DNA of 64,000 bases, taken from contig JBQTJP010000110.1 in the NCBI GenBank assembly GCA_052386995.1, forward strand, positions 30,481 through 94,480, read 5' to 3'. Source of the DNA: Armatimonadota bacterium (GTDB taxonomy: Bacteria; Sysuimicrobiota; Sysuimicrobiia; Sysuimicrobiales; Humicultoraceae). A program made the position numbers and the translations under genes. The notes beneath the pieces are model-generated. The model saw nothing but the letters and a program-made list of their open reading frames with translations, had not been told where the DNA came from and made no database searches. Shown here piece by piece: positions 10,955 through 46,607 of this stretch (position 1 is its first letter; the number at the start of each line of letters is the position of its first letter).

Positions 10955-10957
10955 CTG

Positions 10958-17798: not shown

Positions 17799-17799
17799 G

Positions 17800-19934: not shown

Positions 19935-19944
19935 GCCGCTGCTC

Positions 19945-20928
19945 CTATGCCGGCTTTTGGATCACGAGGTTGGAAATCATCGGCATGGCCGCGGTGATGG
20001 GAACCCGCGTCCACCTCGTGATGGAATGGTAGATCACGGATTCAAAGACACGCCTCTTCCAACTCTGCGCGCCTCCCGTGTAGTTGACGTGCCGGTCGTG
20101 ACCCGGCAGCCCGTTCACCACGCGTAACGGCCGGCCGCGAAGGTAGCGCACGATCTCGAAGAACGTGGCTCCCCACGCCCCTCGTTCTTCCAGGCCCAAG
20201 GGCCCGTCGGAGTGCGTCGCGGGGTTATCGATGTGCTGTCCTGCACGGACCGCCCTGGCGTACGCCCACATCGACCCTGGCGAGCTCCACGGAATCCACC
20301 ACAAGCCGGTCGTGTGAGAATCCTTTGGCCACAGCCTGTTCGGCGTCTCGTTGATGTACAGATGGCCCCCCGGGTTGAGGGCATCGAACAGCCGCGCGAC
20401 CACCCGTCGCCTCAGGCCCCTGATCGACAGGGGGAGATGCTCGAGCACGGCATGGAGCAGGATGAAATCGAAGGTCCCCACGTCTGCGGCGATCTCTTCG
20501 AAATCGCGCGCCCACACCACCCGAACGCTGTCGAGCAGCCGGTGCTCTTCCAGCCTCTTGAGGCACACGGCGACGCTCTTCTCATCGATATCGAAGGCCA
20601 CGAGCCGCTCACAGTGCGGGGCAAGCGCGGCTGTCGCAGACCCCGTGCCGCAGCCAAAGTCCAGGACACGCTTGGCCGAGAGATCGCCGCAGTGGTATCG
20701 AATCTCGGGATACAACTGCGTCTCGAACCGACCCAACCGGCTGTCCGGCCCACCCATGTGTTCGGCAATGTAATCCTCATAGGCCGGCAGGCCCTCCTTG
20801 CCCCTGTGCAGGTCGACGATGAGCCGCTTGAACTCCTGGGAATAGTCGCGAGTGCATCCGGAAAGCCTCACTTCCACGCAATGGTCCACGTCAACGCGTT
20901 CTTCTGGGATCAGCAGCCCCTGGCGCAT
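19945..20928 (-). CDS. Class I SAM-dependent methyltransferase
   Basis: VLDFGCGTGSAT motif I, acidic motif II (AFDIDE). Confidence 0.7.
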   Translation of the reverse strand: MRQGLLIPEERVDVDHCVEVRLSGCTRDYSQEFKRLIVDLHRGKEGLPAYEDYIAEHMGGPDSRLGRFETQLYPEIRYHCGDLSAKRVLDFGCGTGSATAALAPHCERLVAFDIDEKSVAVCLKRLEEHRLLDSVRVVWARDFEEIAADVGTFDFILLHAVLEHLPLSIRGLRRRVVARLFDALNPGGHLYINETPNRLWPKDSHTTGLWWIPWSSPGSMWAYARAVRAGQHIDNPATHSDGPLGLEERGAWGATFFEIVRYLRGRPLRVVNGLPGHDRHVNYTGGAQSWKRRVFESVIYHSITRWTRVPITAAMPMISNLVIQKPA

Positions 20929-20983
20929 CCGAATTCTCTCTCATCGCCATATCGCCGCCAGATCGACAACCGCACCAATCCTT

Positions 20984-22567
20984 TCAGGGTCCGTCTCGGC
21001 CGATCAGGGCGCCTGCACTGAGCCGCGCGCCTTCGCTCCCATCCATCTCGGCAAGCCCGCCTTCTGCACGCCCTCCGGCCCGCCCAAAGTTTCCGCGAAG
21101 CATATCGATGAATGTGAACACCACCTGGCGCTCGGTCAAGAGGATGACCGCTCCGTAGACAACAATCCCGACGGCGACCTCGAGGATCAGGGTCACGAGC
21201 GCGGCGGTGCCCGCCGCCTTCAGCGCCCAATCCACCAGCACCACGCTCGCGATCATGACGGCGCATCCCACGAGGCTCGATCGCACCGCCTCCCACACGT
21301 CGTGGGCCGTTATCCCCAGCACCGACGCCACAAAGCGATGCTGGACCGGCACCAGAATCGCGGTAGCGGCGAGATATCCGGCGGCCACGCCGACGATGCC
21401 CCACCGCAGCCCGATGGCAAACGCCGGGAGGTACAGCAGCAGCGAAAGAAACGTCCATCGCAGCTGCAGATCAGCGCGACCGGCCGCGAGGAGTCCGCTG
21501 AACCACAAGGTCGTCACCAGCTGAAACGTCCCCGCAAACGCCAGGACGCGTATGACCGGGGCCGATGGCAGCCATTTTGCGCCGAAGACCACCTCGACCG
21601 CCGGCGAGGCAACCAGCGCCAGCCCGACCATGACCGGCAGGGCTATGATCGCGACATGTTGCGTCGCAATGAGAAACCCCCGCCTGAGCCGAGCCGTGTC
21701 ATGCTGGACCTTGGAAAAGGCCGACAACATCACCTGATGGAGCGGCGCGGCAACGTCCTGGAGCGGGATCCGGAACGCCGTATACGCGAGCGCATAGTAC
21801 CCCAGAGCAATTGGGCCAAGGAACCGGCCGATCAGCAGGTTGTCGAGATTTCGGATGAAGTAGCTAAAGAGCCGCGAGAGCGTGAGCGGCGTGCTGAACG
21901 ACCAGAGATCCTTGAACTTCGGCCATGAGAATCGCAGGGTCGGCTTCCACCGCGTGGCGAGATAGTAGGCAACCGGGGCCGTGGCGGAGCCGGCAAGCGC
22001 TTTGCCTACCAGACTCCAGACACCCGTGCCGGCCAGGGCCATCCCGAGCCCGGTCAGGCCGCCGACAACCACCGCGGCCGCGTCGCACAACGCCAGCGCA
22101 CGGTACTCCATGCGGCGCGCAGCGAGCGCGAAGTGCGTCACCCATGTGGCGGAGATCACGATGCGGAAGGAGAGGATGACGAGCACCGTCTCCGCGAGCG
22201 GATCCGCCAGAAACGCGCCGGCCAGAGGGGCAGCGGCGAGCGCGATTGCGAACAGAAACGCCCCGACGACCAGGCTCGTCCAGAAGGCTGTCGAGAGGTA
22301 TTCATCGTCCACATCACGCCGCTGGATGATCGCCGACCCACCGCCGGCTTCAAGGAAGAGCTCGAGGAATCCCACAACCACCCACCCGATGGCGATAAGA
22401 CCATAGTCACGAGGAAGGAGGAGTCGAACCAGAATGACTGTGAACACCTGGTCCAACCCTCGCGCCGCGACACGCTGGCCTCCCAGCCAGAACATGCCTT
22501 GCATCGCGGCCGCGCGAATGCGCGGCACCGGATGGCCGTGGGGCCGCACGGTCTCGACCATCGTCAA
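20984..22567 (-). CDS. wzx: Wzx-type flippase (MOP/PST family), paralog of 1102-2622
   Basis: Multi-TM protein about 45% identical by eye to the first Wzx (e.g. LWSFSTPLTLSRLFSYFIRNLDNLLIGRFLG against LWSFGGPLFLSRLFGYAVRNTDNLLIGRYLG). Confidence 0.8.
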   Translation of the reverse strand: MTMVETVRPHGHPVPRIRAAAMQGMFWLGGQRVAARGLDQVFTVILVRLLLPRDYGLIAIGWVVVGFLELFLEAGGGSAIIQRRDVDDEYLSTAFWTSLVVGAFLFAIALAAAPLAGAFLADPLAETVLVILSFRIVISATWVTHFALAARRMEYRALALCDAAAVVVGGLTGLGMALAGTGVWSLVGKALAGSATAPVAYYLATRWKPTLRFSWPKFKDLWSFSTPLTLSRLFSYFIRNLDNLLIGRFLGPIALGYYALAYTAFRIPLQDVAAPLHQVMLSAFSKVQHDTARLRRGFLIATQHVAIIALPVMVGLALVASPAVEVVFGAKWLPSAPVIRVLAFAGTFQLVTTLWFSGLLAAGRADLQLRWTFLSLLLYLPAFAIGLRWGIVGVAAGYLAATAILVPVQHRFVASVLGITAHDVWEAVRSSLVGCAVMIASVVLVDWALKAAGTAALVTLILEVAVGIVVYGAVILLTERQVVFTFIDMLRGNFGRAGGRAEGGLAEMDGSEGARLSAGALIGRDGP

Positions 22568-22932
22568 GAGTCTCTAACGGCGTAGATAATGGAAGGATCT
22601 AGTCCGGCCGGCCCCGGAAGCACGCTGAAACCCTCGCCGATTTCCATTTCGGGAATCGCGGTGTAGGACCGCCGTTCAAAAATCTCCTTGATGAATCCGA
22701 AGTCCACGCGGGCCCAGTGGAGCTTCTTCCCTCGGAAGGGACGCCGGAAGCTTACCCGTCCCAGACGATCGTAAATGGCCGCGAGCGCCCTCCGTCTCGT
22801 CAACGACACCCACGACAGCAGCAGGAACCGCATGGTGACACGCGGGCCGAACCAGCGCCACGCCGTACCGCTGAGCGCGAGCAGTCTCCTGGCACCGCGC
22901 AAGCGAGACCTCAAAAACGTGCTCGGTGCCAC
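22564..22932 (-). CDS. Hypothetical protein
   Basis: It fills the gap between the flanking genes exactly, with a 4-nt overlap and a 15-nt gap. No recognisable domain. Confidence 0.3.
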   Translation of the reverse strand: MAPSTFLRSRLRGARRLLALSGTAWRWFGPRVTMRFLLLSWVSLTRRRALAAIYDRLGRVSFRRPFRGKKLHWARVDFGFIKEIFERRSYTAIPEMEIGEGFSVLPGPAGLDPSIIYAVRDS

Positions 22933-22947
22933 TGCCTTCCCCTTCCA

Positions 22948-24144
22948 TCAGGCTCTCTCAACCCGCGAGCCATCGAGATGCGCAGAGGCGGCATGGTCCG
23001 ACTCGCCATGCACAAGCGCCTCGTAGAGATGCTGATAGGCTTCAGCCATCTGGCCGATGTCGAATAGCCGTCGCGCTCGCTCTTGACCTGCTTCACCCAA
23101 CTGCTTCCTACGGGCGGCATCTCGAAGGAGTTCTGTGGTCGCCCGGATGAGCGCGCCGGCATCTCCGGGCAGACAGAGACGCCCGGTGCGCCCTTCTTGA
23201 ACCTGATCCACGACGCCACCGACGCTTGTGGCGACAACCGGTAGACCCGCCGCCATGGACTCCAGGATGGTGAGAGGAAAACTCTCGTAGTTTGACGTCG
23301 ACAAGAAAAGATCCGATGCGTGGTAAAGATCCACAAGGTCCGTCCTGAGCCCCAGAAATCTGATCGCGTTCTGCAGACCCTCCTTGCGAACGGCGCTCTC
23401 GAGTGCTGGGCGTTCCGGTCCATCACCGGCTACCAGAAAAACCGCCCTGTCGACCGTCGCGGCCACCTGACGGGCCACCTCGACGAACAGCGCGACATTC
23501 TTGACCGGCACGACCCGAGCCATGTACAGCACCACTAATGCGTCGTCCGAAAGCTGGTTGCGCCTGCGCCATACGTGACGCGGCGTGCGCGGGGACGCAA
23601 AGGACGCCGTGTCGATGCCAGTAAGGATCATCGCAATCGAGTCCGCACCGAGCCCAAACGCTTTGGCGACATTGTCGCGCGTGTCGGTGGAGTGCACGAC
23701 AGGTCGATAGCCCAGCCGGCGGGCCATGAATCTCTGGCTTGCGGTATTGAGCCGCGACAGTTGGCCGCCGTCCGGGCCGGTATGGATATCCAGGAGCCTG
23801 CCCCTGACGGCCCGACCGAGAAGATCAGACGGGATCGCATACCACGCGATCCCGGTATACGCGTGCAACACATCTGGCCGAACCTTCCGCACCACGTGCG
23901 CCAGTTCCCACATCAGCCTGCCCTGCAGCCCGATGCCGGCATCCCGCGGCATGTTCAGGGGATGGAACGTCACGTGATTCCCGATCTCGGCGAGGTCGTC
24001 TTCGGGGAGCAGTGGCCTCGCGGTGCAGGCGTGGAGCTCAAAACGCTCGTTGTTCACCCGTCGCAAGAGATCGCGGATAAACCGTGGCACACCGCCCGCC
24101 TTAGACAGCCTCCAGGTGAAATGGAGCACGCGAATCCGTCTCAT
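22948..24144 (-). CDS. GT4-family glycosyltransferase
   Basis: GT4 motif (STSNYESFPLTILESMAAGLPVV). The start MRRIRVLHF overlaps the upstream stop. Confidence 0.8.
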   Translation of the reverse strand: MRRIRVLHFTWRLSKAGGVPRFIRDLLRRVNNERFELHACTARPLLPEDDLAEIGNHVTFHPLNMPRDAGIGLQGRLMWELAHVVRKVRPDVLHAYTGIAWYAIPSDLLGRAVRGRLLDIHTGPDGGQLSRLNTASQRFMARRLGYRPVVHSTDTRDNVAKAFGLGADSIAMILTGIDTASFASPRTPRHVWRRRNQLSDDALVVLYMARVVPVKNVALFVEVARQVAATVDRAVFLVAGDGPERPALESAVRKEGLQNAIRFLGLRTDLVDLYHASDLFLSTSNYESFPLTILESMAAGLPVVATSVGGVVDQVQEGRTGRLCLPGDAGALIRATTELLRDAARRKQLGEAGQERARRLFDIGQMAEAYQHLYEALVHGESDHAASAHLDGSRVERA

Positions 24145-25346
24145 GTGCGCGCGGGGATTCCTTGGGCGCGGGCGCCGCCATCGACAGCGACGCTTTGGAA
24201 CAGTGCCTCGAGGGCCGCCACGACGGTCACAATATCGTAGCGTGAGCGCACCCATGTGCGCCCGTCCTCGCCAAGCTGCCTGGCGAACTCGCGATCCTCT
24301 GCCAGGCGCAGGAGTTGAGCGGCGAGGCTTGCAGGCGACTGTGGGTCGGCCAGCAACGCCACGGTGCCGTCCCCTGTGACCTCGCGAAGCACGGGTATCC
24401 GACTAGCCACGCATGGTTTGCCCGCCGCCATTGCTTCCAGCAGGGCATTTCCAATGCCCTCATAGAGCGACGGGAACACAAAGATGTCGGCCGCCTGCAG
24501 CAATGCGGGGATGTCTCGCCGCTCGCCAAGCAGCGTCACATGGTCACCCAGGCCTTGCGCCCGGATTGACTGCTCCAGCGTGGAGTGAAACCACCCGTCG
24601 CCAGCGAGAACGAGGCGTGCCCGCGGAAACCTGGTCAGGACCTCCTTCATCGCGGCAATGGCGTAGGGCTGTCCCTTCTGCGGGACGAGCCGGGCCACGT
24701 TCAAGATGACCGGATAGGCGTCTTCCCATCCCAGGGCTGCCCGAACCGCCCGTGGGTCGCCCCCCTCGCGCGCGGCATAGTCATCCAGCGCCAGCCCCCG
24801 CGGAATCACGGCGATGCACTCCGGGCGTAGCCCCAACTGGCGCACCGCCGACGCTTTGACGCTTTGGGTGATTGCCACGAATCGGGTTCCCCACCATCTG
24901 GCAGTCAGCCCGTCCAAAGCCTGCGTGATCCAGACCTTCCAGCCCTTCACGTGAGGGTTGTCCAGGCGCCACTCCGGCTCGTAGGTCGTATTGACTAGGG
25001 TCGTGATGACCGGGATCCCGGTCACTCTCCCGACGCACCGGCTCGCGATACCCGGACGGTAGAGGGCGGCGTGAAGAAGATCCGGCGCGAGGGCTCGGAC
25101 GAGACGCCACAGCCGGACCGCTGCACGACCCAGATCCCTCCTGGACGTAACGCCGAGGATGTGGACAGGGATACCGAGCCCTTCCAGATCCGCGACAAAG
25201 CGGCCGCCCTCCGAGAGCGCACACACCTCGTGACGAAAGCGGCGTGGGTCTGAGCGCGACAGGAACGCGATCATCTGCCGCTCCGTCCCTCCGGTGTCCA
25301 GGTCATCAAGGACATGCAAAATGGTGATCCGACGACTATCAGCCAT
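24141..25346 (-). CDS. GT4-family glycosyltransferase
   Basis: GT4 motif (PSLYEGIGNALLEAMAAGKPCV). Confidence 0.8.
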   Translation of the reverse strand: MADSRRITILHVLDDLDTGGTERQMIAFLSRSDPRRFRHEVCALSEGGRFVADLEGLGIPVHILGVTSRRDLGRAAVRLWRLVRALAPDLLHAALYRPGIASRCVGRVTGIPVITTLVNTTYEPEWRLDNPHVKGWKVWITQALDGLTARWWGTRFVAITQSVKASAVRQLGLRPECIAVIPRGLALDDYAAREGGDPRAVRAALGWEDAYPVILNVARLVPQKGQPYAIAAMKEVLTRFPRARLVLAGDGWFHSTLEQSIRAQGLGDHVTLLGERRDIPALLQAADIFVFPSLYEGIGNALLEAMAAGKPCVASRIPVLREVTGDGTVALLADPQSPASLAAQLLRLAEDREFARQLGEDGRTWVRSRYDIVTVVAALEALFQSVAVDGGARAQGIPART

Positions 25347-25427
25347 TGGACGGCATCGGCAGGCTATCGAGTTGAGCTGTGTCTGATGGAGGGCTCTCTA
25401 TGATCGATCCGTGCCTTGCGACGTCCG

Positions 25428-25462
25428 CCCTGGGGGGTCGACACCCTCCGACCGCCCCAGGG
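25428..25462 (-). terminator. GC-rich hairpin 18 nt downstream of the G8 gene stop. It lacks a U-tract and is a possible terminator or RNA-stability element.
   Basis: CCCTGGGG-GGTCG..loop..CGACC-G-CCCCAGGG, about 13 bp of stem. Confidence 0.35.
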
Positions 25463-25480
25463 CAGCAATCTCAGACGAAC

Positions 25481-27964
25481 CTAGAACCTTCTCACTCGAA
25501 GTACACGGCTGGCATTGACAGTCCCATTGCTGCCGATCCCCAGAGCCCAGAAGTACGCCCGGCGCGGCGGGTGGCTGCCCATGCTGAAGCTCATCGAGGC
25601 GAACCCGCGGACCGTTCGCACCCGCTCGAGTCTCTGGTTGGCCTGGTAGAACTCGACCTCGGCTGCGTTGGTCTCCACGGTCAAGGTAATCGTCCCGGTG
25701 GCCACGAGGTCATCGTTCGGCGCCGACCACCGCACGCGCGGCGTCTGTGGGCGGGTCCCCGTGCCATCGTTGTCCCTGCGGCGGGCGTTGTACTCAGAGT
25801 CCACAACGCCCGCCGCTCCATCCTCTCTGTGGAAGAGCGTAAAGTCTCCTGGGCGCGAGAGCCCGCGCTGCTGGCGGAATCGCAGCTGGCTGCCCGGTGG
25901 AGGTGCATCGGCCCCGCCGAACCAGATGCCGCGGCTCGGCGAGAACTGTACGCGCGCGAATTGCACCACCGATCGCTCACCCGGGCCATTACGGTCCTGC
26001 GAGTGCCGCACGTTGAAGGCCGTGACGTTCCGGACGACACCGTCCTCATAGACCGAATCGAAGCTTGACGCCGCAACGTACGACTGGATCTCAACACCAG
26101 TCGCCCCGACGCCCATGCCGTCGGCGAGGAACCCCGTGAATCCCCACAGCGCGGGAACTGACCCGGCATGGCCACTCGTCCAGTGCGCGATCTGCGCATG
26201 TCGGTTGCCCAGCGATCTAAGCCCGTGCAGCCAGTAGGCCGTGATGTAGGCTCCCCACCCGAGGCCGACTTCATTCCTCCACGTCAGGAGGTCGACGATA
26301 CGCTGAGTGGGCGTGAGATTCTGCCATGAGTGAAATCCCATGGCCGTATTGGAATTCGCTTCCGCCCGAAACACGTGGGGCGTTTCTCCGTAGTCCGTCC
26401 CGCCCTCAGGCCAGTGAATTCCCGACGACCGCGCGGAAGGGAATCCGTCCGCGGCGCTGCTTCCGGCCGCGACTGCCCCGACGATCGCGCAGTTGCGGCT
26501 TCCGTCCATCCAGATGCCGGCGTTGCGGGCATTCCGGCTGTTCCCCCATCGCATGACCAGCACGCGATCGAGCCAGCAATCGTCCGCCGCGTGATACTGG
26601 TTGTGGTTCGGCCCGACCGCATTGACGCAGAAGGACTCGAACCGGCACTCCAGCATCACCGGGGTTGTGCTTTCTATATCGTCTTGCCGCGCATTGCGGA
26701 CGGAATGCCGGGAGTGGTCGTAGACCACGAGGTCCTCCACGGTGATGCCGAAGGAGCCGTGGATATGCAGACCGTCCCCGGGCCCGCCGGCCAGGACAAC
26801 GCGGCGGAGGTAACTGCCCCGCGAACCGTCAAGCTGCCTGTGACTGTGCCAGGCGTACCGGCCCATGGGCTCCCGTGTGGGCGCCGGCGAGAAGTTGTAG
26901 ACTGCCAGGTTCTCGACATAGTACCTCGCGCGGTCCATAAACATCACATGCGGCCGGTGATTCGGGTCGCCCGCCTCGAAGATGACATTGCTCGTCAGGT
27001 TGGCCACCTTGGCCGTCAACCGCTCCGTCCAGGAGTCGCCCCACGCGTCCTGCCAGCCGACTGAGAGCGCCTCATGTGTGTACCGCAAGCCCGAATCCAG
27101 CTGGAACCGGCCGTGACCGAGGTCGGCGGTGATCCGGCGCACTTCGTCCTGGTGATCGTTCTCGTTGGCCCGCAGATTCGACGGTCCCACGACCACTCGA
27201 TCGCCCACCCTCCAGCCGGCCGCAAAAGCGGGATCGACGGCAATCTCAGCGCTCCCGGCTCGTGCTGTCTCGGTCAGCGGGGACCAGGTGTCCCGATAGA
27301 CGCCGGCTACCCACACTTGAGCGCTGTCTATGGCCCACAGGCCCACATCGGTCGCGAGGGGCGCCATCACGTTGCCACCAACATACTGGCCCTCGTTCAG
27401 GAACCACCGGATGGAGGCCGGAACCGTGACTCGATCGCTCGCGCGGCCGTAGTCCAGCACCCCCCGGACAACGAGGTTGCCATAGAGCGTGAGCCGCGAG
27501 GCCCTGCCACGGCTCGCGCGGAGCGTACCGTCGACCGTGACTGTCCGGGCTTCCGCGGCTTCCGTGTCGACTTCGATCACTCGCCCCGCCGGAATGACGA
27601 CATCGTTGTCCCGTGTGGGGACGCGGCCGGACGGCCACGTCGCGGGGTCGCTCCAGCGAAGCCCTCCGGATGATGGAGGAGGGGTTGGCGGGATCGGCGT
27701 GCGCGATGGGACGGGCGCGGGCGGTGTTGGTGCGCCCGGGGTCGGGGCGGGTGTTGGCGCAGGCGTCGGCTGCGACGGCGGCGGTGTGGGCTGTCCTGGC
27801 GTGGGCTGACCTGGAGCCGGCGTAGGTGGCGCAGGTGGTGAAGTGGGCTGCGGTGTCGGTCGCGGTTTTCCACCAGGCGGCGGCTGGGCAGAAATCAGAT
27901 TCGGAGAGGGGAGCGCGAGGGTGAGGGCGACGAGGAGTGAGAGGGAGAGAAGACGCAGACGCAC
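25481..27964 (-). CDS. Secreted G8-domain / right-handed beta-helix protein (CEMIP/TMEM2-like). A glycan depolymerase or modifying enzyme is likely.
   Basis: GTG start, a signal peptide, a ~70-aa Pro/Thr-rich linker and a G8-like N-terminal segment (RWSDPATWPSGRVPTRDNDVVIPAGRVIEVD...TVDGTL). A long beta-helix-like region follows. Confidence 0.6.
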   Translation of the reverse strand: MRLRLLSLSLLVALTLALPSPNLISAQPPPGGKPRPTPQPTSPPAPPTPAPGQPTPGQPTPPPSQPTPAPTPAPTPGAPTPPAPVPSRTPIPPTPPPSSGGLRWSDPATWPSGRVPTRDNDVVIPAGRVIEVDTEAAEARTVTVDGTLRASRGRASRLTLYGNLVVRGVLDYGRASDRVTVPASIRWFLNEGQYVGGNVMAPLATDVGLWAIDSAQVWVAGVYRDTWSPLTETARAGSAEIAVDPAFAAGWRVGDRVVVGPSNLRANENDHQDEVRRITADLGHGRFQLDSGLRYTHEALSVGWQDAWGDSWTERLTAKVANLTSNVIFEAGDPNHRPHVMFMDRARYYVENLAVYNFSPAPTREPMGRYAWHSHRQLDGSRGSYLRRVVLAGGPGDGLHIHGSFGITVEDLVVYDHSRHSVRNARQDDIESTTPVMLECRFESFCVNAVGPNHNQYHAADDCWLDRVLVMRWGNSRNARNAGIWMDGSRNCAIVGAVAAGSSAADGFPSARSSGIHWPEGGTDYGETPHVFRAEANSNTAMGFHSWQNLTPTQRIVDLLTWRNEVGLGWGAYITAYWLHGLRSLGNRHAQIAHWTSGHAGSVPALWGFTGFLADGMGVGATGVEIQSYVAASSFDSVYEDGVVRNVTAFNVRHSQDRNGPGERSVVQFARVQFSPSRGIWFGGADAPPPGSQLRFRQQRGLSRPGDFTLFHREDGAAGVVDSEYNARRRDNDGTGTRPQTPRVRWSAPNDDLVATGTITLTVETNAAEVEFYQANQRLERVRTVRGFASMSFSMGSHPPRRAYFWALGIGSNGTVNASRVLRVRRF
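27664..27883 (-). repeat. Low-complexity Pro/Thr-rich linker coding repeat inside the G8 gene
   Basis: Reiterated (PTPAP/PTPGQ)n codons. Several spurious antisense ORFs arise here. Confidence 0.5.
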
Positions 27965-28029
27965 GGATCACCTCCGATTTATCCAGAAGCTCTCCGTCGG
28001 TCGGGGAACGCTGCAGGACCGTCCTTCTC

Positions 28030-28135
28030 TTCGGCAGCCCGGCTGTCTTGGAAGTATCGTCCAAGACCCGTAGCTTTGCGTCCCCGAATCACTTCGGGTT
28101 TGCCCTTGTCGGAGAGTTCCGGTGAATGGGATCTC
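28030..28135 (-). ncRNA. Candidate c-di-GMP-I (GEMM) riboswitch in the 5' leader of the G8/beta-helix gene
   Basis: The minus-strand RNA reads ...GGGCAAACCCGAAGUGAUUCGGGGACGCAAAGCUACGGGUCUUGGACGAUACUUCCAAGAC... It carries the conserved GGCAAAC element, a P2 hairpin capped by a GNRA tetraloop (CCCGAA-GUGA-UUCGGG), the invariant GGACGCAAAGC element and a P3 hairpin (GUCUUGG...CCAAGAC). An SD (GGAGG) and a GTG start follow about 60 nt downstream. Confidence 0.5.
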
Positions 28136-28188
28136 TGAAGTTCCCCATACCCGACTCCCAAAATCCTTAGACCTCTGGAAACCCATCC

Positions 28189-28980
28189 TCAATCAACCCC
28201 TCTTTCGTGCACGACACAAATCCGCGCGGGGCCCAGTCTATTCAGAAGAAGATGAATGCGGTGATCCCTAAAGTACTCGTCTGCCGCCCGCCTCGCCCCT
28301 TGCCAGTACCCGTAGTCGTCGATGATGAGAACGCCGCCGCGGCTGATTCTCGGGAACAAGTGCTGGAGTTCGTGCTTCGTTGATGCATACCAGTCGGTGT
28401 CCAGCCGGAGCAACGCAATCGAGTCCGGGGCTTGTCGTGGAATCGTCTCCTCGACAAGACCCGCGACGCAGTGAATTCTGGCCTCGTCATACCCTGTCGA
28501 TCGCATGACGCTGCGCACTTTGTCGATCGAGACCGCAGCCCAGGTCGCCTCTTCATCGGCGGGGTCCGACTCTGCCAGGACCTGGCCGGCCGTTGCCCCG
28601 TCCCACCTTAAGTCGTGGGGGCTCGGGGGCGGCATACCTTCAAAGGTATCAAACAGATACAGATCGCGGCTCGCATCATGCTCCAGAAGCAACGTGTACG
28701 CAGCGGCCATCATGCTCCCACCGCGCCAGACACCGCATTCAACAATCGCCCCGGGTACGTGTGCACGAGCCACGTATCTCACCGCGTGGCACAGCGCAAA
28801 GGCTTGCTCCGGCGTGGACTTGGTGTAAGGACCAACACGCTCAATTACCTCATTGAACTCCGGGTCGAAGTCCGGAGGAGAGCGATAATATGGAACAACG
28901 TCAAGGCCGAACTGACGGGCAACGAGCCGAACACCCGAGATGACGAAACGAGATATGCGGCCTGTTCCCGTGGCGATCAT
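28189..28980 (-). CDS. TylF/MycF-family (macrocin-type) sugar O-methyltransferase
   Basis: TylF-family architecture: GVWRGGS, FDTFEGMP and LLRLDTDWYAST motifs. Confidence 0.75.
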   Translation of the reverse strand: MIATGTGRISRFVISGVRLVARQFGLDVVPYYRSPPDFDPEFNEVIERVGPYTKSTPEQAFALCHAVRYVARAHVPGAIVECGVWRGGSMMAAAYTLLLEHDASRDLYLFDTFEGMPPPSPHDLRWDGATAGQVLAESDPADEEATWAAVSIDKVRSVMRSTGYDEARIHCVAGLVEETIPRQAPDSIALLRLDTDWYASTKHELQHLFPRISRGGVLIIDDYGYWQGARRAADEYFRDHRIHLLLNRLGPARICVVHERGVD

Positions 28981-28986
28981 CGCGGT

Positions 28987-30081
28987 TTACTGAGGCCTCT
29001 CCAGCACCTCCGACCAGGCGGTGGCGAGGCGTCGGAGGATGTGCCGGGGGTGAATCCCCGAGAGTCCGAGTTGAAACCGGCTGCACGAGTGTGTGACGTT
29101 CACGAGTTGACGGGGCAGCGCGAAGTGTTCGCGCGCCGATGGGGTCCAGCGGCCAAACCCTACGCCAAAAGCCGCCACGAACCCGCGCTCTTTCAGCAAC
29201 GAGGCCGCTCGGGCATCGTAGTGGCCGAACGGATAGGCGAACACCTTTTCCACCGTACCTAGTTCACGCTCGAGGTCGGCCTGGGAACCCTTGATTTCCA
29301 TGACGAGTTCTTCGTCGGTGAGAGACGGCATCGATGCGTGCGTTCGGCCATGCGAAGCAATGATCACGCCGTCTGCGGCCAGCGCGCGGAGCTCATCCCA
29401 GCTCAGAACCGTGGTTCGCGGCGCCACGCTGACACCCAGGGTGGCACGGAGATCGGCCATGCGGTGTTCAATTGCCTTAGGACTCTTGGTCCACAATTCG
29501 TTCCTGAGCTCTTTCAGCGCCGTCCAACGCCCGCGCGGGGTACGGAGGTCGACGCGTCCCGCGCCATTAAGGGTAACCTCTGCATTCGCCGCGTGCGAGA
29601 GCATCTGCCAGAGCTCGTCCCACCAGAAGAGCTTCGCCCGATCCGGATAGGCGGTGGGGACAAATACAACGGCGGGCACACCGTGGGCCTTGAGCACCGG
29701 CCACGCATGCGTTGAGAAATCCCGATAGCCGTCGTCGAAGGTCACCAGCGTGGCCCCCGCCGGGAGCGTTCGACCCTCCACCAGAGATGCCCTGAGCTCC
29801 TCGGCCCCTATGGGGACGTAGTGCCGGGCGATCAGGCGGATCTGCTCAGCGAAAGCCTGGGGGGTCGCGCTGATAACGCCGGGATGGCCACCGATGGGGT
29901 CACGTGCAGGGTCACTGACCCTGTGATAACAGAGGACCCGAAGAGACCGGGCCTGCTCGCGCAGGTCGCGCCCCCGCAGCATTCTCAGCAGTCCGGAGTG
30001 CCGCAGGACGAGGTCGGCCACCTGCTCCACAGCCAGCGCTGTACGTGGGCGGCCGGCGGACTCCATGACCCGTGCGACCAT
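28987..30081 (-). CDS. Polysaccharide deacetylase (CE4 / NodB homology)
   Basis: TFDDGY motif and NodB-like His motifs. Confidence 0.75.
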   Translation of the reverse strand: MVARVMESAGRPRTALAVEQVADLVLRHSGLLRMLRGRDLREQARSLRVLCYHRVSDPARDPIGGHPGVISATPQAFAEQIRLIARHYVPIGAEELRASLVEGRTLPAGATLVTFDDGYRDFSTHAWPVLKAHGVPAVVFVPTAYPDRAKLFWWDELWQMLSHAANAEVTLNGAGRVDLRTPRGRWTALKELRNELWTKSPKAIEHRMADLRATLGVSVAPRTTVLSWDELRALAADGVIIASHGRTHASMPSLTDEELVMEIKGSQADLERELGTVEKVFAYPFGHYDARAASLLKERGFVAAFGVGFGRWTPSAREHFALPRQLVNVTHSCSRFQLGLSGIHPRHILRRLATAWSEVLERPQ

Positions 30082-30084
30082 GAC

Positions 30085-30807
30085 TTAGGTCTCCGATCCT
30101 TGAGAGTTCGATCCGGCTCGATTGACCCAGATGCCCAATCGCTCGCGTGTGCGCCAGACCAGGATACCGGGTCTCATCTGAGCGGACCGCAGGATCAGTG
30201 TCTCGAGGAGCGGCCCCGCATTGCCACGCGAGCGCGCGACGTATACCCCCAGGCCGCCCAAGAGCTGGAGTGAGAGCAACTCGATCGGGCGCTGGAACTC
30301 GACCGTTTCAAAGGCCTTGAGGGAAGGTCGGTTGCGGTTGCTCACCCGGGCGTAGACCCGCCGCACACCACGTTCTCTGGCATACTTGAGACACGTTCCC
30401 ATGACCGCCTGAAACACGTGACTGCTTCGAAATTCGGGGGCGGTGTACGCATCATAGATGTACGCTTCCTCGTGGTTCAAGCGAATCTTCACCCCGATAT
30501 CCTCGAGATCCCACGACCCGAAGCCCAGCCAGCTCCCGTGGATCATCCGCTCCCCTACGCGCGCGACGAAGCAGAGATGGCCGTTGCGAAGACGTTCAAA
30601 GAACCTCGCCGTGTCGACAAAGTCCGGGACCGGCGGAGCCTGGGACTCGCCCAGGGTCGCCGACGAAATGCACCCAATCGCGATCGCGATGCGGGGCGAC
30701 ACCTCCTGGAGCGGCGCGCCTGGGTCGCGAACGAGGATGGACTCGGACCACTTTCGCCACAGCGAGCGTTTCGCGCCTGCGAGAACCTCACGTGCCTCAT
30801 CGATCAT
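30085..30807 (-). CDS. GNAT-family N-acetyltransferase
   Basis: GNAT core of about 240 aa. Confidence 0.6.
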   Translation of the reverse strand: MIDEAREVLAGAKRSLWRKWSESILVRDPGAPLQEVSPRIAIAIGCISSATLGESQAPPVPDFVDTARFFERLRNGHLCFVARVGERMIHGSWLGFGSWDLEDIGVKIRLNHEEAYIYDAYTAPEFRSSHVFQAVMGTCLKYARERGVRRVYARVSNRNRPSLKAFETVEFQRPIELLSLQLLGGLGVYVARSRGNAGPLLETLILRSAQMRPGILVWRTRERLGIWVNRAGSNSQGSET

Positions 30808-30861
30808 GGCAGGTGTCGTTCACGATCTCTTGCCGCCCCGACGTGCCACGGGCCATCGTGG

Positions 30862-31680
30862 TTAGGTTTTGTGCAACAAACCGACATAGTAGACCTTGTC
30901 CCACCGGTACACCCCGCGTCGCGTCGGCTTGGGAATGATCAGCGCGGCCAGCCCTTGCGCGTCCGCGAAGTCCAGAAACGCGTCGTGCTCCTGGACGTCA
31001 TCCACCATGAGCACCCCTCCGGGGCGCATGTGCGGCCACAACAGACGCCAGGCGCGCAGCATCCCCTCGTAACTCTTGTCTGAGTCATAGAAGAATACGT
31101 CGACCGGGCCAACACGGTTCAGCACAGCGGGCAGCACCCGCCGGTCTGGACCCAAGAGCAGCTGCCAGCGGCCCGAGGCTCGAAGGCGCTGCGGGATCGC
31201 GCCGCCGGTATACGACGTCACTCCAGGGCGGAACATCGGAAGGTCCACGCTGCAGAGGGTACCGCGCTCGTTGTCCTCTAACGCCTGCAGAATCGCGGCC
31301 GTACTGTACCCGTGGGCGACGCCGGTCTCTAGAACGACAGTGGGCTTGAGCAGCCGAACCACGGCATAGCATGCTTCGAGGAACGCAGCGCCTCCCAGTT
31401 CGCGGGCCGGGGTGGGAATCGCGTAGGCCTCCAGCTCGGCAAGGAGCCGCCGCAGCGACGGCGCCTCCATATGACCCTGAATGACGGCCGGAGCCGCTCC
31501 TGCGAGCTTCGAGATCCCATCCGCCGGCGGACTCGCCAGCGTCGGGTAGGCGTCGACGCGCTTGCGGTGGCGCCTCAGCGTGACTCTCGAAATGGACTTC
31601 CACCACACCTCCGGCAGCAGCGAGGGATCACGCAGCACGCGTTCCAAGACGGCGACTCCCTGCGTCGCAAACCTGCGCAT
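30862..31680 (-). CDS. Class I SAM-dependent methyltransferase (Methyltransf_24 / O-MT family 3-like)
   Basis: LETGVAHGYST motif I, VDL...FFYDSDKSYEG. Confidence 0.65.
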   Translation of the reverse strand: MRRFATQGVAVLERVLRDPSLLPEVWWKSISRVTLRRHRKRVDAYPTLASPPADGISKLAGAAPAVIQGHMEAPSLRRLLAELEAYAIPTPARELGGAAFLEACYAVVRLLKPTVVLETGVAHGYSTAAILQALEDNERGTLCSVDLPMFRPGVTSYTGGAIPQRLRASGRWQLLLGPDRRVLPAVLNRVGPVDVFFYDSDKSYEGMLRAWRLLWPHMRPGGVLMVDDVQEHDAFLDFADAQGLAALIIPKPTRRGVYRWDKVYYVGLLHKT

Positions 31681-31704
31681 AGATTCGTTAAGTCGAGCCT
31701 GGGG

Positions 31705-33030
31705 TTAGAGTCTTTCGAGCTGCGGCGTGGGGCGCGGCGGAAGGTAGGCGAGGAGCATAAAGATGAATGGCAGGAGTTGAGGGCGTTGCCGGGCGATGAT
31801 GGCGAAGTTGGAGATGCCCGAGAAGAAGAATGCGAACAACAAGATGAAGACGACGGCAAGCATCATGAACGCGTTCCCCGGCGCGGCGGCAACCGCGGCG
31901 GCGAGGCTCTTCCACTTCCTAAAGAACAGCAGAATGAGGAAGATGCCTTCCACCGCCGAGATCATCGCAAACGCGTTGTGGGCTTCCCACGGAAATGGCC
32001 GAAAGAACACGGTGCTGAGTCCGTCGACGAACGCGATTGGATTCGTGGGCACGACGCGATGGATCGCCGCCCCCCCGCGCTCGGTCCTCTCCTGACGGTC
32101 CTCGATGTAGCTGAGGACGCCGTCCGGCGTGAGATCATCGAGCTGGATGTAGCCCGCGGACGTTTGCACGACAAAGATGGCGACGACCGCGAACACCAGC
32201 ACTACCGCGATGCGCACCATGGGCGTCAACAGGCCGGCGCGTGCCGGCCGCCACACCGAGGCGGCCGCGACCGCCACGCCGATAATGCCCGCGACGTGCG
32301 GTCGAATCACCATGACGCCACCCAGACCGACGCCCATGATCACGAGGCTCGACAGCGCTATGCGTCGCATGAGCCGCGCCGCCCCGTAGGTCCCTAAGCC
32401 GAGGCAAAAGCACACGAGGGCGTCCTTCCCCAGGCTGCTCGTCCACAGCGCCATCGATGGGTACAGCATGATCAAATAGGCAAAAAGCCGGCGGTTGCCA
32501 TTGGGAACCGCGGTGACAAACGCCTTGTAAAAGAACAGCATGCCGAGCAGTCCGAGCCACGCCCAGAACACGAAGGCGCCGATGAGCGTGGGGCCGGTGA
32601 AGAGATAGAAGATTCCCGTGATGAGCGTGACCATATCCGTGCCGTGATAGTCGGTGATATCCGGCGAGCCCCCGGCCAGGATCGCCGCCGCCGCGCGGCT
32701 GCCGCCGCCGTGGTAGCCGACCGCGTCCGCAAAGCCGCCGTACTGATCGAAGATGAACCACAGACGAAACACGATCGCGCCGAACTTGAGGAACAGGGCC
32801 ACGATCAGCAGGCGGAACAGTAGCGTGCCTATTGGATCGTCTCGACTGGCCAGGTGGAAGATCACGAGCGAGGCCATGACCACGCCGGCAATGATCACGG
32901 CGGCCCGCATGCCCTCGATGTCTTGAATCGCGATGAAGCTGCCGATCACGCCGGCGATGGCCACAAAGACGATCCCGGGGCCCAATCGCTTTCCCACATT
33001 CGTTGAGTACGTGGACGTGCGCACGCTCAT
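31705..33030 (-). CDS. Polytopic membrane protein, probable Wzy-type repeat-unit polymerase (an O-antigen ligase-like function is not excluded)
   Basis: At least 10 predicted TM helices with a large loop. The start is MSVRTSTYS. It lies between the MT gene and the nucleotide-sugar dehydrogenase gene. Confidence 0.5.
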   Translation of the reverse strand: MSVRTSTYSTNVGKRLGPGIVFVAIAGVIGSFIAIQDIEGMRAAVIIAGVVMASLVIFHLASRDDPIGTLLFRLLIVALFLKFGAIVFRLWFIFDQYGGFADAVGYHGGGSRAAAAILAGGSPDITDYHGTDMVTLITGIFYLFTGPTLIGAFVFWAWLGLLGMLFFYKAFVTAVPNGNRRLFAYLIMLYPSMALWTSSLGKDALVCFCLGLGTYGAARLMRRIALSSLVIMGVGLGGVMVIRPHVAGIIGVAVAAASVWRPARAGLLTPMVRIAVVLVFAVVAIFVVQTSAGYIQLDDLTPDGVLSYIEDRQERTERGGAAIHRVVPTNPIAFVDGLSTVFFRPFPWEAHNAFAMISAVEGIFLILLFFRKWKSLAAAVAAAPGNAFMMLAVVFILLFAFFFSGISNFAIIARQRPQLLPFIFMLLAYLPPRPTPQLERL

Positions 33031-33077
33031 CGCGCGAATGCCTCCTTGAAAATCCCGGGAGCCCGGGCGCAGGCAGG

Positions 33078-34427
33078 CTACAGCCGAACGATCTTCGCTC
33101 GCCCCTCCGCGACCTCGCGGGTCGCGTTGCGCGTATCCATCACGAGCCGCGCGTTGCGCACGACCCAGCGATAGTCGACGCATGAGTGATCGGCCACGAT
33201 CATCACGCAATCCGCGCTTCGGAGCGCGGCCGCCGTCAGCGGCCGGCTCGCAAGCGAGTGCCCATTGACCGACAGCCTCGGCACGTAGGGATCGTGATAG
33301 CTGACTTTCACGCCGTGCTGGATCAGCAGTTGGATGATCTTCAGCGCCGGCGACTCGCGGTAGTCGTCGACATCTTTCTTGAAGGTGACGCCCAGCACGA
33401 GCAGGCGCACCGCGCCGGGACGATGCCGGTGACCGTTGAGAGCGAGGAGCGTCTTGGTGACGACGTGGTACGGCATCTCCTCATTGACCCGGGCCGCGAG
33501 CTCAATGAAGTCCATGTGAAAGTCGTATTCTCGGGCCTTCCAGGCCAGGTAATACGGATCGACCGGAATGCAGTGGCCGCCCACCCCGGGCCCGGGCTGA
33601 AATCGCAGAAATCCATAGGGCTTGGTCGCCGCCGCGTCGATGACCTCCCAGATGTCCAGCCCCATGCGGTCACACAGCATGGCCAGCTGGTTCACCAGGG
33701 CGATGTTGACGTTGCGGAAGACATTCTCGAGCAACTTGGACAGCTCGGCCGTCACCGATGAGGACACCGTCTTGACAGGCGTCCCGAGGGCGCCGAAGAG
33801 ACGCGCCGCGCGCCGTGTGCTCTCCGGGTCGACGCCGCCTACGACCACCGGCGTGTTCCGAATGGTGTAGTCCTGCCTTCCGGGGTCGACACGCTCCGGC
33901 ACGAAAGCCAGAAAGATGTCGCGCCCGACCGACAGACCGTGGGATTCCAGGATCGGCAAGACCAGTTCCTCAGTCGTGCCAGGGTAGGACGTGCTCCGCA
34001 AGATCACCAGCTGGCCGGGCCGGAGGTGCTCGGCAACGCCACGGGTGGCGCTGGCGATGCTCGACGTATCGGGTTGCTTGTTCGGTGTGCAGGGCGTCGG
34101 TACGCAGATGAAAATCACATCGGCGCGCGAGAGTCCCTCATAGGCCGTGTCGACCTTGAGACGACCGGAGGCCTGAACCGCGGCAATATCGGCCGCGGGC
34201 ACGTCGCCGACAGGCGACGAGTTGCTGAGCAAGGTGTCGATCCGCGCCGAATCGACATCGATTCCAAGCACGCGGAACCCTTCCTGGGCAAAAGCCACAG
34301 CCAGAGGCAGGCCCACATATCCGAGGCCGATGACCGCGATGTGAGCCTCTTTGGTCCGCACCAGGTCATTGAACTGCGCCGGCCTGGAGGCCTTCGATGC
34401 GGCATATTCGACAGTGGCTATCGTCAT
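33078..34427 (-). CDS. Nucleotide-sugar dehydrogenase (UDP-GlcNAc/ManNAc 6-dehydrogenase, WbpA/WecC-like)
   Basis: N-terminal GLGYVGLP Rossmann motif, a catalytic Cys region (GGHCIPVDP) and the UDPG_MGDP_dh C-terminal domain. Confidence 0.85.
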   Translation of the reverse strand: MTIATVEYAASKASRPAQFNDLVRTKEAHIAVIGLGYVGLPLAVAFAQEGFRVLGIDVDSARIDTLLSNSSPVGDVPAADIAAVQASGRLKVDTAYEGLSRADVIFICVPTPCTPNKQPDTSSIASATRGVAEHLRPGQLVILRSTSYPGTTEELVLPILESHGLSVGRDIFLAFVPERVDPGRQDYTIRNTPVVVGGVDPESTRRAARLFGALGTPVKTVSSSVTAELSKLLENVFRNVNIALVNQLAMLCDRMGLDIWEVIDAAATKPYGFLRFQPGPGVGGHCIPVDPYYLAWKAREYDFHMDFIELAARVNEEMPYHVVTKTLLALNGHRHRPGAVRLLVLGVTFKKDVDDYRESPALKIIQLLIQHGVKVSYHDPYVPRLSVNGHSLASRPLTAAALRSADCVMIVADHSCVDYRWVVRNARLVMDTRNATREVAEGRAKIVRL

Positions 34428-34492
34428 TGATAAGGCTCCGCCGTCCCGGGTACATTCCCCAGGCGAATGATGGCCAAAATTGGACGAGCGCA

Positions 34493-34510
34493 GGGACGCA
34501 AGCGCGTCCC
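34493..34510 (-). terminator. Short GC hairpin in the 92-nt gap after the NusG-paralog gene; a candidate attenuator or terminator
   Basis: GGGACGC-AAGC-GCGTCCC perfect 7-bp stem. An AUUUUGG run lies about 12 nt downstream on the minus strand. Confidence 0.3.
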
Positions 34511-34519
34511 CTCCCTGCC

Positions 34520-35038: not shown

Positions 35039-35071
35039 GGCGCGTTATACTGGACCCGTTCATTGGGGAGC

Positions 35072-35728: not shown

Positions 35729-35761
35729 CGTTCGTTCCCTCCTAAAACCCTCGCACGCGCC

Positions 35762-37360: not shown

Positions 37361-37403
37361 AGCCCTGACTCCTCTCCCTTTCCGGCCTCAGGAAGTCCGA
37401 CCA

Positions 37404-41405: not shown

Positions 41406-41611
41406 GGCCAGGGTACCTCGAGGGCCGCGGCGACCACCGCGGTGACGAGAAGAAGAACGATCTTGGCCCTGATCGCCCGCCGGTCATCGGCGAGCAACGC
41501 GCAGATTTGTATCCCCATTTCTGCGGGTGACCGTGTGGCCATCGGACCCAGCCGGCCGGCTGCGCAGCGCCGATAAGCGGTGTGGACGGTGAACGGTTCG
41601 GTTCGGATCAT
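41402..41611 (-). CDS. Small hypothetical protein with a C-terminal hydrophobic helix
   Basis: 69-aa ORF whose start overlaps the lexA stop (4 nt) and whose stop overlaps the RNase H-like start. It could be non-coding. Confidence 0.25.
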   Translation of the reverse strand: MIRTEPFTVHTAYRRCAAGRLGPMATRSPAEMGIQICALLADDRRAIRAKIVLLLVTAVVAAALEVPWP

Positions 41612-46604: not shown

Positions 46605-46607
46605 GCG

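Follow-up and report, generated by a model that had tools for sequence, protein, structure and literature searches.

What does a secreted G8/beta-helix protein do in the middle of an exopolysaccharide (EPS) operon, and what does the leader in front of its gene control? We analysed a 64,000-nucleotide stretch of DNA (the window) from the uncultured phylum Sysuimicrobiota (formerly CSP1-3; GenBank GCA_052386995.1, contig JBQTJP010000110.1). A preliminary description had proposed a secreted protein resembling the CEMIP/TMEM2 hyaluronan depolymerases, a candidate processing glycanase or lyase in a Wzx/Wzy locus. With a probability of about one half, we read the gene product as a secreted enzyme that cleaves polysaccharide and belongs to the CEMIP/TMEM2 superfamily, without GG lectin domains; it would be made at low c-di-GMP and would trim or degrade the cell's own acidic EPS.

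Results

The gene and the surrounding EPS locus

The reading frame was present exactly as described, at 25481..27964 on the minus strand, where all features given below also lie. It starts with GTG and encodes 827 amino acids (coordinates include the stop codon). A strong Shine-Dalgarno (SD) sequence, GGAGGTGA, precedes the start; its GGAGG core, read from the sequence at 27971..27975, lies 6 nt upstream of the GTG, and the spacing is identical in 12 leaders. About 35 full-length homologues (40-88% identity, E = 0 to 1e-126) support the reality of the gene. The gap upstream is 224 nt. It had been called the only large one in the locus, which is nearly right: three other gaps measure 1334, 380 and 510 nt. 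The 1334-nt gap contains the NusG and ATPase genes, the 380-nt gap a methyltransferase pseudogene remnant, and the 510-nt gap, which precedes wza, is at the locus border.

The co-oriented EPS locus spans 14780..38405, as judged by Pfam, transmembrane counts and synteny with L006. It contains a wza-like exporter (37404-38405; Poly_export and SLBB), a Wzz-like gene (35762-37360) whose Pfam match of 18.8 bits is weak and below threshold, a BY-kinase-like ATPase (35072-35728; AAA_31/ParA), a NusG paralogue (34520-35038; Pfam), a UDP-Glc dehydrogenase (33078-34427; Pfam), a putative Wzy (31705-33210) with at least 8 transmembrane segments and no Pfam match, and a Wzx flippase (20984-22567; Polysacc_synt_3, 273 bits). 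Four GT4 glycosyltransferases, deacetylases, acetyltransferases and methyltransferases were also found with Pfam. The examined part of the locus yielded no priming transferase. The assignment to a Wzx/Wzy-type pathway holds, with Wza, Wzx, the ATPase and the glycosyltransferases resting on Pfam matches and Wzy on its transmembrane segments.

Architecture and fold of the protein

The proposed order of signal peptide, Pro/Thr-rich linker, G8-like segment and long beta-helix agrees with composition, Pfam and structure prediction. Residues 1-26 (27887..27964; MRLRLLSLSLLVALTLALPSPNLISA, cleavage before Q) form the single N-terminal hydrophobic segment and have the composition of a typical Sec signal peptide, with MRLR, a Leu-rich core, a predicted ISA/Q cleavage site and no lipobox Cys. 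The linker, residues 27-100 (27665..27886), is 49% Pro and 15% Thr; the equivalent linkers of relatives are 96-128 residues long with 42-58% Pro plus Thr. The G8 segment and right-handed parallel beta-helix occupy residues ~101-736 (25757..27664). Pfam G8 (PF10162) matched residues 109-186 with 30.6 bits against a gathering threshold of 22.9 (E 3.4e-7), covering profile positions 1-80 of 124 in this protein and 1-123 of 124 in its orthologues. CEMIP_beta-hel (PF24606) scored below threshold (20.1 vs. 27.3 bits), and an NCBIfam search returned nothing meaningful. The right-handed beta-helix was confirmed by the predicted model and by fold search, in which it superposed on solved beta-helix enzymes of the pectate-lyase-like fold. 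TMEM2 was the best structural neighbour, followed by enzymes; the adhesins pertactin and Vag8 are also among the beta-helix matches. The C-terminal residues ~737-827 (25484..25756) are predicted to form an Ig/FN3-like beta-sandwich, as Foldseek gave local matches to CbhA FN3-like modules and to the N-terminal domain of chitinase A (probability 1.00, TM ~0.7 on the target).

Relation to CEMIP and TMEM2

Searches of PDB sequences with the single sequence or a close-family profile found no relative, and TMEM2 was reached only when the profile included intermediate sequences. For this reason the link was re-tested with hhalign. Profile alignment to TMEM2, hhalign and fold search all supported the proposed resemblance. 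The protein is a member of the CEMIP/TMEM2 superfamily with a CEMIP-type beta-helix contiguous with G8, and the superfamily comprises 5,848 representative clusters, with thousands of prokaryotic members. An orthologue of CEMIP or TMEM2 would have two GG (lectin-like) domains, of which the first interrupts the helix and bears the residues linked to activity (R187 in CEMIP; R265/D273/D286 in TMEM2). Here both are missing: the alignment passes over TMEM2 residues ~166-336, the model contains no extra domain, and there is no Pfam match. Compared with the ectodomains of TMEM2 (CEMIP2; PDB 8C6I) and CEMIP (KIAA1199, HYBID), the protein shows ~16% identity and also lacks a transmembrane anchor; it has the N-terminal linker and the C-terminal Ig-like domain instead. 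In contrast to the vertebrate proteins, it is prokaryotic, encoded in an EPS locus and probably riboswitch-controlled. Hyaluronan is an unlikely substrate.

The motif R369-Y370-A-W-H373-S-H375 (26840..26860) consists of invariant or near-invariant columns and aligns to TMEM2 (GRYPVHFH) and to CEMIP-like proteins. Together with H339, H402 and E439 it is a candidate active or metal site. An equivalence of the AlgG/AlgE 'YxxDPH' motif with RYxxHxH was not supported, because the sole weak AlgG alignment fell on a different coil.

A c-di-GMP-I-type riboswitch in the leader

The gene had been said to have its own regulatory leader. This leader proved to be a c-di-GMP-I-type riboswitch aptamer at 28029..28113, 64 nt before the start codon (Rfam 73.2 bits vs. 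gathering 59, E 2e-15). Among 14 related copies, 98.4% of the cells were paired and 12 of 23 pairs were compensatory, a result reached by none of 500 shuffles. The best Rfam model was RF03167, matched over its full length (1-80/80). At the intercalating position this GGC variant has, by definition, G in place of A (consensus GACGCGAAGC). All 14 aptamers contain GCAAAGC, with A, so that a true GGC variant was rejected. In the window RNA, alignment columns 10, 38 and 97 are G, A and C, which we take to be the canonical ligand contacts G20, A47 and C92 of Vc2. Because every copy has A, we file the RNA as a c-di-GMP-I riboswitch with a canonical pocket (RF01051, clan CL00126), predicted to bind c-di-GMP. 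It shares with other c-di-GMP-I (GEMM-I) RNAs of RF01051/RF03167 the three-helix junction, the GNRA tetraloop and the junction nucleotides GCAAAGC and GCCG, and its score likewise exceeds the gathering threshold. Unlike typical members, it scores best on the GGC model despite its A, lies inside an operon, and has as its platform a three-way translational design of P1, anti-P1 and a sequestrator of the SD and start.

The predicted expression platform

Two segments would make up this switch. The 5' flank with the P1 5' strand (CGGAACUCUCCG; 28110..28121) is common to P1 and anti-P1 and is complementary at 10 of 12 positions to 27985..27996. The latter contains a mimic of the P1 3' strand (CGGAGAG) directly followed by an anti-SD tract (CUUCU), and could pair with either the 5' P1 segment or the SD/start region. 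In 11 leaders, 94.5% of the anti-P1 cells were paired, compared to 45-74% when the helix was slid, and 4 of 10 pairs changed on both sides; support is moderate, as 25 of 500 shuffles reached the doubly-changed count in these related sequences and kinship inflates such scores. Enforcing anti-P1 raised the probability of being unpaired from 0.08 to 0.43 for the start codon and from 0.00 to 0.34 for the SD; leaders L025 and L031 stayed closed. Plain minimum-free-energy folding kept the SD hairpin in both the free and the P1-enforced states in most leaders. Consensus scans of 25200-28400, which do not reach non-canonical promoters, found neither a sigma-70 promoter nor an intrinsic terminator, and the lack of a terminator argues against control by transcription termination.

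Because the covarying anti-P1 helix shares nucleotides with the hairpin that sequesters the SD and start, binding of c-di-GMP, the biofilm signal, appears to turn translation OFF. In the bound state, P1 would hold the 5' segment CUCUCCG, and the CGGAGAG mimic with the adjacent anti-SD tract would fold onto the SD and start codon. At low c-di-GMP, the 5' segment would pair with the mimic and the anti-SD tract, freeing the SD and start for translation. Unlike a terminator, such a translational switch would leave the downstream glycosyltransferase and flippase genes unaffected.

Relatives in Sysuimicrobiota

The layout of aptamer, SD, signal peptide, Pro/Thr linker and G8 recurs in ~12 lineages of the phylum. 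In one orthologous lineage a c-di-AMP riboswitch takes the place of c-di-GMP-I, and the L036 aptamer, which has A20, is possibly a c-AMP-GMP riboswitch judging by this nucleotide. About 7 related lineages lack a riboswitch. In the window clade and in the relatives nearest to it, the gene lies inside or beside EPS loci. In P0032, the c-di-AMP lineage and L095 the G8 gene is outside such loci, so the cell's own EPS would not be a universal substrate. Some relatives carry additional modules, SPOR in L038 and L042 and dockerin-like or CarboxypepD_reg in others; no wall-binding module was found in the window protein.

Discussion

The superfamily fold and homology, together with the EPS locus, support the interpretation of this protein as a processing glycanase or lyase. 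The enzyme would be exported by Sec. Its catalytic core would be a minimal G8 and parallel beta-helix module, which a flexible Pro/Thr linker carries at one end and an Ig-like domain follows at the other. It may act as an endo-lyase or hydrolase on the acidic (GlcA-containing), acetylated and methylated EPS of the surrounding locus. Given that the ligand is predicted to mean OFF, sessile cells with high c-di-GMP would make matrix polysaccharide and not the depolymerase; when c-di-GMP falls, the depolymerase would be made, leading to trimming, release or dispersal.

The protein could instead act within the EPS pathway, in biosynthesis or in modification of the polymer. It might, for instance, be an AlgG/AlgE-like polymer-level uronate C5-epimerase or a processing glycanase required for export, co-expressed with the pathway or switched ON by c-di-GMP. 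We consider this improbable, since both the platform logic and the covariation suggest OFF, several lineages carry the G8 gene outside EPS loci, and the DPHD motif of AlgG does not align with the invariant RYxxHxH coil. A secreted glycanase with other targets, made in a planktonic or growing state with low cyclic dinucleotide, would fit the non-EPS contexts of some relatives, the size of the superfamily and the c-di-AMP riboswitch of one lineage, a class that often controls wall hydrolases. Such an enzyme would remodel the envelope by cleaving cell-wall or secondary-wall glycans, or would use foreign polysaccharides as food, and the peptidoglycan-binding SPOR domains and the dockerin-like and CarboxypepD_reg modules of relatives would equally fit these substrates. 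The EPS contexts of the window clade and the window protein's lack of a wall-binding module speak against it, and we regard it as unlikely here.

Whether the protein is an enzyme at all must also be asked, as the catalytic competence and active site of TMEM2 are themselves disputed (PMC10206443; PMC12423501) and its recombinant ectodomain was inactive in one study (PMC10206443). A non-catalytic surface or matrix protein, such as an adhesin, EPS-binding anchor or scaffold, could use the beta-helix as a binding platform, as adhesins do, and a Pro/Thr linker with an Ig-like domain is typical of surface proteins. This seems highly improbable in view of the polar His, Arg, Tyr, Asp and Glu residues that are invariant family-wide up to TMEM2 and the enzymes among the closest structural neighbours; moreover, it would be unusual for c-di-GMP to repress an adhesin. 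Against the reading as an enzyme trimming the cell's own EPS stand the missing GG domain with its activity-linked residues, the dispute over TMEM2 catalysis, the lineages without riboswitch and the relatives outside EPS loci.

A broader reading is tentative, and we think it rather unlikely: the family would be the catalytically competent 'core' of the superfamily, with H339, R369, Y370, H373, H375, H402 and E439, invariant from bacteria to human, as the superfamily active site. The enzyme would then be a general output of cyclic dinucleotides, because orthologues sit behind c-di-GMP, c-di-AMP and possibly c-AMP-GMP riboswitches, and a single gated cistron in the EPS operon would make matrix synthesis and cleavage anti-correlated.

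Gene and riboswitch are each of a known kind; their combination is unreported in the literature searched, where we also found no bacterial G8 protein with a described function. In Clostridioides difficile, a c-di-GMP-I riboswitch stops production of ZmpI, an enzyme that releases matrix or adhesins, at high c-di-GMP. ZmpI differs in that it is a protease rather than a glycan-active beta-helix, and its control is transcriptional. General context is given in PMC11477304. RbmB of Vibrio cholerae is a VPS lyase (PDB 9OZD; PMC11637428, PMC12993940) with no detectable sequence relationship to this protein, no G8 segment and no known riboswitch control. Nor was sequence homology detected with phage and bacterial capsule depolymerases or polysaccharide lyases such as K1 lyase (7W1C) and depolymerase S2-4 (9K4A), which are trimeric tailspike assemblies with other catalytic residues.

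A translational c-di-GMP riboswitch that would gate one mid-operon EPS cistron, with a swap to c-di-AMP in one lineage, is an unusual design, and it is the first regulatory handle on one bacterial G8 subfamily. In the uncultured Sysuimicrobiota, cyclic-dinucleotide riboswitches would thus control the turnover of envelope or matrix glycans. For CEMIP and TMEM2, whose own activity and active-site location are still argued, a soluble 730-residue bacterial homologue that has the same invariant His, Arg, Tyr and Glu without lectin domains offers a simple system for studying catalysis and mapping the site, and its gene adjoins those for its probable uronic-acid substrate, which helps in testing catalysis. 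This likely matrix-trimming enzyme may therefore serve as a simple model, in bacteria, of a human family that is poorly understood.

The G8 protein and its kinship with CEMIP/TMEM2

The G8 gene lies where the preliminary description had placed it, on the minus strand at 25481..27964; it starts with GTG, encodes 827 aa, and is preceded by GGAGGTGA at the correct spacing. The window sequence is about 65% GC and long spurious ORFs are frequent there. Unlike these, the G8 ORF is real, because it has about 35 full-length homologues with 40-88% identity. The expected signal peptide was recovered at residues 1-26 (MRLRLLSLSLLVALTLALPSPNLISA, followed by Q); its N-terminus is positive, and its Leu-rich core is followed by an AxA-like cleavage site. 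It contains no lipobox cysteine and is the sole hydrophobic segment of the protein. The Pro/Thr linker, described earlier as well, covers residues 27-100 (49% Pro and 15% Thr). The suspected G8 domain is matched by the Pfam G8 profile with 30.6 bits (gathering score 22.9) over profile positions 1-80 of 124, and the CEMIP_beta-hel score is sub-threshold (20.1 vs. 27.3 bits).

The AlphaFold2 model of residues 100-827, based on an alignment of 78 sequences, is of very high confidence (mean pLDDT 93.7, pTM 0.94) and nearly all beta. The proposed beta-helix is supported by the fold neighbours, which include many tailspikes and GH28 and PL6 enzymes, and Foldseek is concordant. Foldseek also assigns the final ~90 residues to an FN3/Ig-like sandwich.

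By profile comparison, the sequence link between the G8 protein and TMEM2 is transitive. A profile with intermediate sequences matched 8C6I, the PDB entry of the TMEM2 (CEMIP2) ectodomain, along the G8 part as well as the helix (E 1.6e-61); when restricted to the close family, the profile gave no PDB match. With hhalign, the close family matched 16 distant CEMIP-like proteins (probability 100%, E 1.6e-44, 361 columns), and the same 16 proteins matched 8C6I with E 4.7e-126. The profile alignment to 8C6I contains no counterpart of TMEM2 residues ~166-336, the first lectin-like GG domain. The G8 protein belongs to the G8/CEMIP-beta-helix superfamily but, as it lacks the GG domains, is not an orthologue of CEMIP/TMEM2. 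An exhaustive search returned 5,848 representative clusters at E <= 1e-3, falling to 335 at <= 1e-30, and only about a dozen were full-length matches; this places the protein in a small subfamily within a large superfamily.

The TMEM2 structure paper places G8 structurally within the beta-helix and describes the lectin domain as an insertion, with no active site assignable (PMC10206443). What G8 and the PbH1 repeats do is still described as unclear in a 2025 review (PMC12423501). D255, H339, R369, Y370, H373, H375, H402 and E439 of the window protein occupy columns that are invariant or nearly invariant in its family and align to TMEM2, and their spacing of ~30 residues suggests that these residues are stacked on successive coils.

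A c-di-GMP-I aptamer in the leader

The regulatory leader postulated for the G8 gene proved to contain a c-di-GMP-I-type aptamer, located in the 224-nt upstream gap. It was the single RNA found by the Rfam search of the whole window, at 28029-28113 on the minus strand, the strand of the G8 gene, and ends 64 nt ahead of the GTG. The best-scoring model is RF03167 (c-di-GMP-I-GGC), matched over its full length with 73.2 bits (gathering score 59, E 2e-15); the Rfam alignment pairs the consensus GACGCGAAGC with the window aptamer GACGCAAAGC. In 14 related aptamers, the helices covary strongly: 98.4% of cells are paired, 12 of 23 pairs are compensatory and none of 500 shuffles equalled this, in an alignment fitted to the model and thus favouring the structure.

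The leader RNA belongs to the c-di-GMP-I class. We equate three alignment columns with positions G20, A47 and C92 of Vc2. The putative A47 and C92 columns are A and C, respectively, in 14/14 aptamers, and the putative G20 column is G in 12/14. Since these columns are as in the canonical class, the window RNA is, by its predicted pocket, a canonical c-di-GMP-I aptamer. The invariant A at the A47 column rules out the G47 variant, to which we take "GGC" in the family name to refer. The two exceptions at the G20 column are L036 (5700-5784), with A and with its best score on RF01051, and L095 (5388-5463), with C. An A at this position is the signature of c-AMP-GMP-sensing GEMM-Ib variants, and judged by their sequences both aptamers may have a ligand specificity different from c-di-GMP. 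A second, weak aptamer-like match on the L095 contig (10088-10174, 22.7 bits, E 0.002) precedes a 645-aa ORF (10402-12339) without Pfam matches.

A predicted translational switch

A 12-nt segment at 28121-28110 (-), CGGAACUCUCCG, comprises 8 nt of 5' flank and the first 4 nt of helix P1. Its complement, in the window CGGAGAGCUUCU at 27996-27985 (-), matches at 10-12 of 12 positions across leaders, begins 25-39 nt past the aptamer and ends 17-21 nt ahead of the start codon. The first 7 nt of the complement are an improved copy of the P1 3' strand (CGGAGAG vs. CGAAGAG). In the predicted folding, its last nucleotides lie within a pyrimidine tract paired to the Shine-Dalgarno (SD) sequence, and its CGGA also pairs with UCCG immediately before or inside the start codon. 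The alternative helix, anti-P1, is 94.5% paired in 11 leaders vs. 45-74% when the partner is slid; both nucleotides have changed in 4 of its 10 pairs, and 1 of 500 shuffles equalled its covariation score. With P1 enforced, the start codon has a probability of being unpaired of at most 0.08 in 11 of 12 leaders; with anti-P1 enforced, this rises to 0.43-0.98 in 8 of 12. For the window leader, the change is from 0.08 to 0.43 for the start codon and from 0.00 to 0.34 for the SD. Without ligand, anti-P1 is computed to be the lower-energy conformer in 12/12 leaders. The L036 platform differs: its SD lies within an extended P1 (GCUCC...GGAGC) and its start codon 12 nt past the aptamer. For both platforms we infer, with a probability of roughly 0.6, that translation is shut off when the ligand binds. 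No terminator-like element was found at the G8 leader. This fits a position inside an operon, where termination would shut down the glycosyltransferases and flippase further downstream as well.

Conservation of the riboswitch link

In genome and metagenome collections, c-di-GMP-I aptamers stand directly upstream of orthologous G8 genes. After collapsing replicates, and among lineages with enough upstream sequence, this holds for about 12 (window, L006, L013, L001, L024, L025-28, L044, L009/30, L031, L003/43, L008 and L036), and for one distant protein with 29% identity (L095). About 7 lineages have no riboswitch upstream (L005/34, L007, L012, L014, L032, L033 and L042). The c-di-GMP lineages have a fixed layout of aptamer, 57-72 nt, GGAGG, start codon, signal peptide MR[LIA]R..., PT-rich region and RWSDPA(T/A)W. 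One further lineage (L015, L035, L037-40) carries a c-di-AMP riboswitch at the equivalent position (RF00379, 74.9 bits). This ydaO-type element lies at 7426-7569 in L015 and 5640-5783 in L038, with the start codon 94 nt 3' of it; the orthologue (43-44% identity, 903 aa) ends in a SPOR domain, and its neighbours are an ABC transporter and no EPS locus.

The EPS context is present for relatives at 80, 63, 52, 49 and 45% identity and missing for the relative P0032, the c-di-AMP lineage and L095; thus conservation of the riboswitch link equals or exceeds that of the EPS link. The relatives that carry names are "Candidatus Fervidifonticultor" species and "Armatimonadetes bacterium CSP1-3", in the phylum Candidatus Sysuimicrobiota, which is therefore very likely the phylum of the window as well. 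The accessory modules are the PT linker in the window clade, an N-terminal CarboxypepD_reg in L025, L033 and L044, a dockerin-like module in L032, and a C-terminal SPOR domain in L042, as in the c-di-AMP lineage. A PMT_2 (GT-C, protein-mannosyltransferase-like) gene adjoins the G8 gene in L003/L004 (L003 12096-13556) and another is near it in L007 (13638 onwards); their products might glycosylate the Pro/Thr linker. None was seen beside the window G8 gene.

The EPS locus and its surroundings

The polysaccharide-locus setting claimed earlier was confirmed by the exporter, Wzx-type flippase, Wzy-like and GT4 genes around the G8 gene. Every gene from ~14.8 to 38.4 kb is on the minus strand, in the order Wza-like exporter (Poly_export and SLBB), Wzz-like protein (weak match), BY-kinase-like ATPase (AAA_31/ParA), NusG paralogue (34520-35038, 75 bits), UDP-glucose dehydrogenase, Wzy-like 501-aa protein (at least 8 TM-like segments), methyltransferase, GNAT acetyltransferase, deacetylase and TylF-type methyltransferase, the G8 gene, two GT4 glycosyltransferases, a methyltransferase pseudogene remnant, the flippase, and finally two methyltransferases, two GT4, GNAT and deacetylase genes. 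The locus is collinear with that of L006, the 80%-identical relative (77-81% nucleotide identity), except for the TylF-type O-methyltransferase gene (28189-28980; region 28130-29028), which is missing in L006; the homology breakpoint is 17 nt upstream of the aptamer.

The NusG paralogue, between the ATPase and dehydrogenase genes, is kept in L006, and suggests that the long operon is subject to RfaH/LoaP-like processive antitermination. The 380-nt "gap" preceding the flippase gene (22568-22947) is a Methyltransf_21 remnant (tblastn 69% identity, residues 13-127 then 266-287, with an internal deletion) of a gene intact in L006. Maximal ORFs overlap by 115 nt at 24141-24255 (GT4/GT4) and by 133 nt at 33078-33210 (dehydrogenase/putative Wzy); in both cases, the downstream gene probably starts further inside its listed ORF. 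Just outside the locus border lies a LexA repressor gene (41608-42234, minus strand); next come a PALP-family (pyridoxal-phosphate-dependent) enzyme gene (42402-43478) and glycine-cleavage genes (43346-47783). The dnaA, dnaN and recF genes at 55271-59348 coincide with a low-GC stretch (53% at 56-58 kb) and the cumulative GC skew minimum, and mark the chromosomal origin region. To its left, at 17-40 kb, is the EPS locus, co-oriented with replication.

Function and significance

The G8 protein is probably a secreted glycan-cleaving enzyme made at low c-di-GMP, as indicated jointly by its fold neighbours, its cluster of conserved polar residues, its signal peptide for export, the acidic EPS locus around it and the predicted repression by the "sessile" signal. 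Lyase, hydrolase and epimerase chemistry are all compatible with the data; metal-independent uronate lyases and epimerases use an Arg/Tyr/His constellation. The same protein might instead be a biosynthetic modifying enzyme, a glycanase acting on wall or foreign glycans, or a non-catalytic adhesin. As a glycan cleaver, the G8 protein would trim or break down the EPS of its own cell, and RbmB of the V. cholerae matrix locus would be its functional analogue (PMC11637428, PMC12993940).

No paper in the searched literature linked a G8 domain to a riboswitch, exopolysaccharide or glycoside hydrolase. The protein and the leader RNA are each new within known families, and their combination was not found there. 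The G8 protein offers a tractable model for locating the CEMIP/TMEM2 active site, and a second point of interest is that its orthologues stand behind different classes of cyclic-dinucleotide riboswitch.
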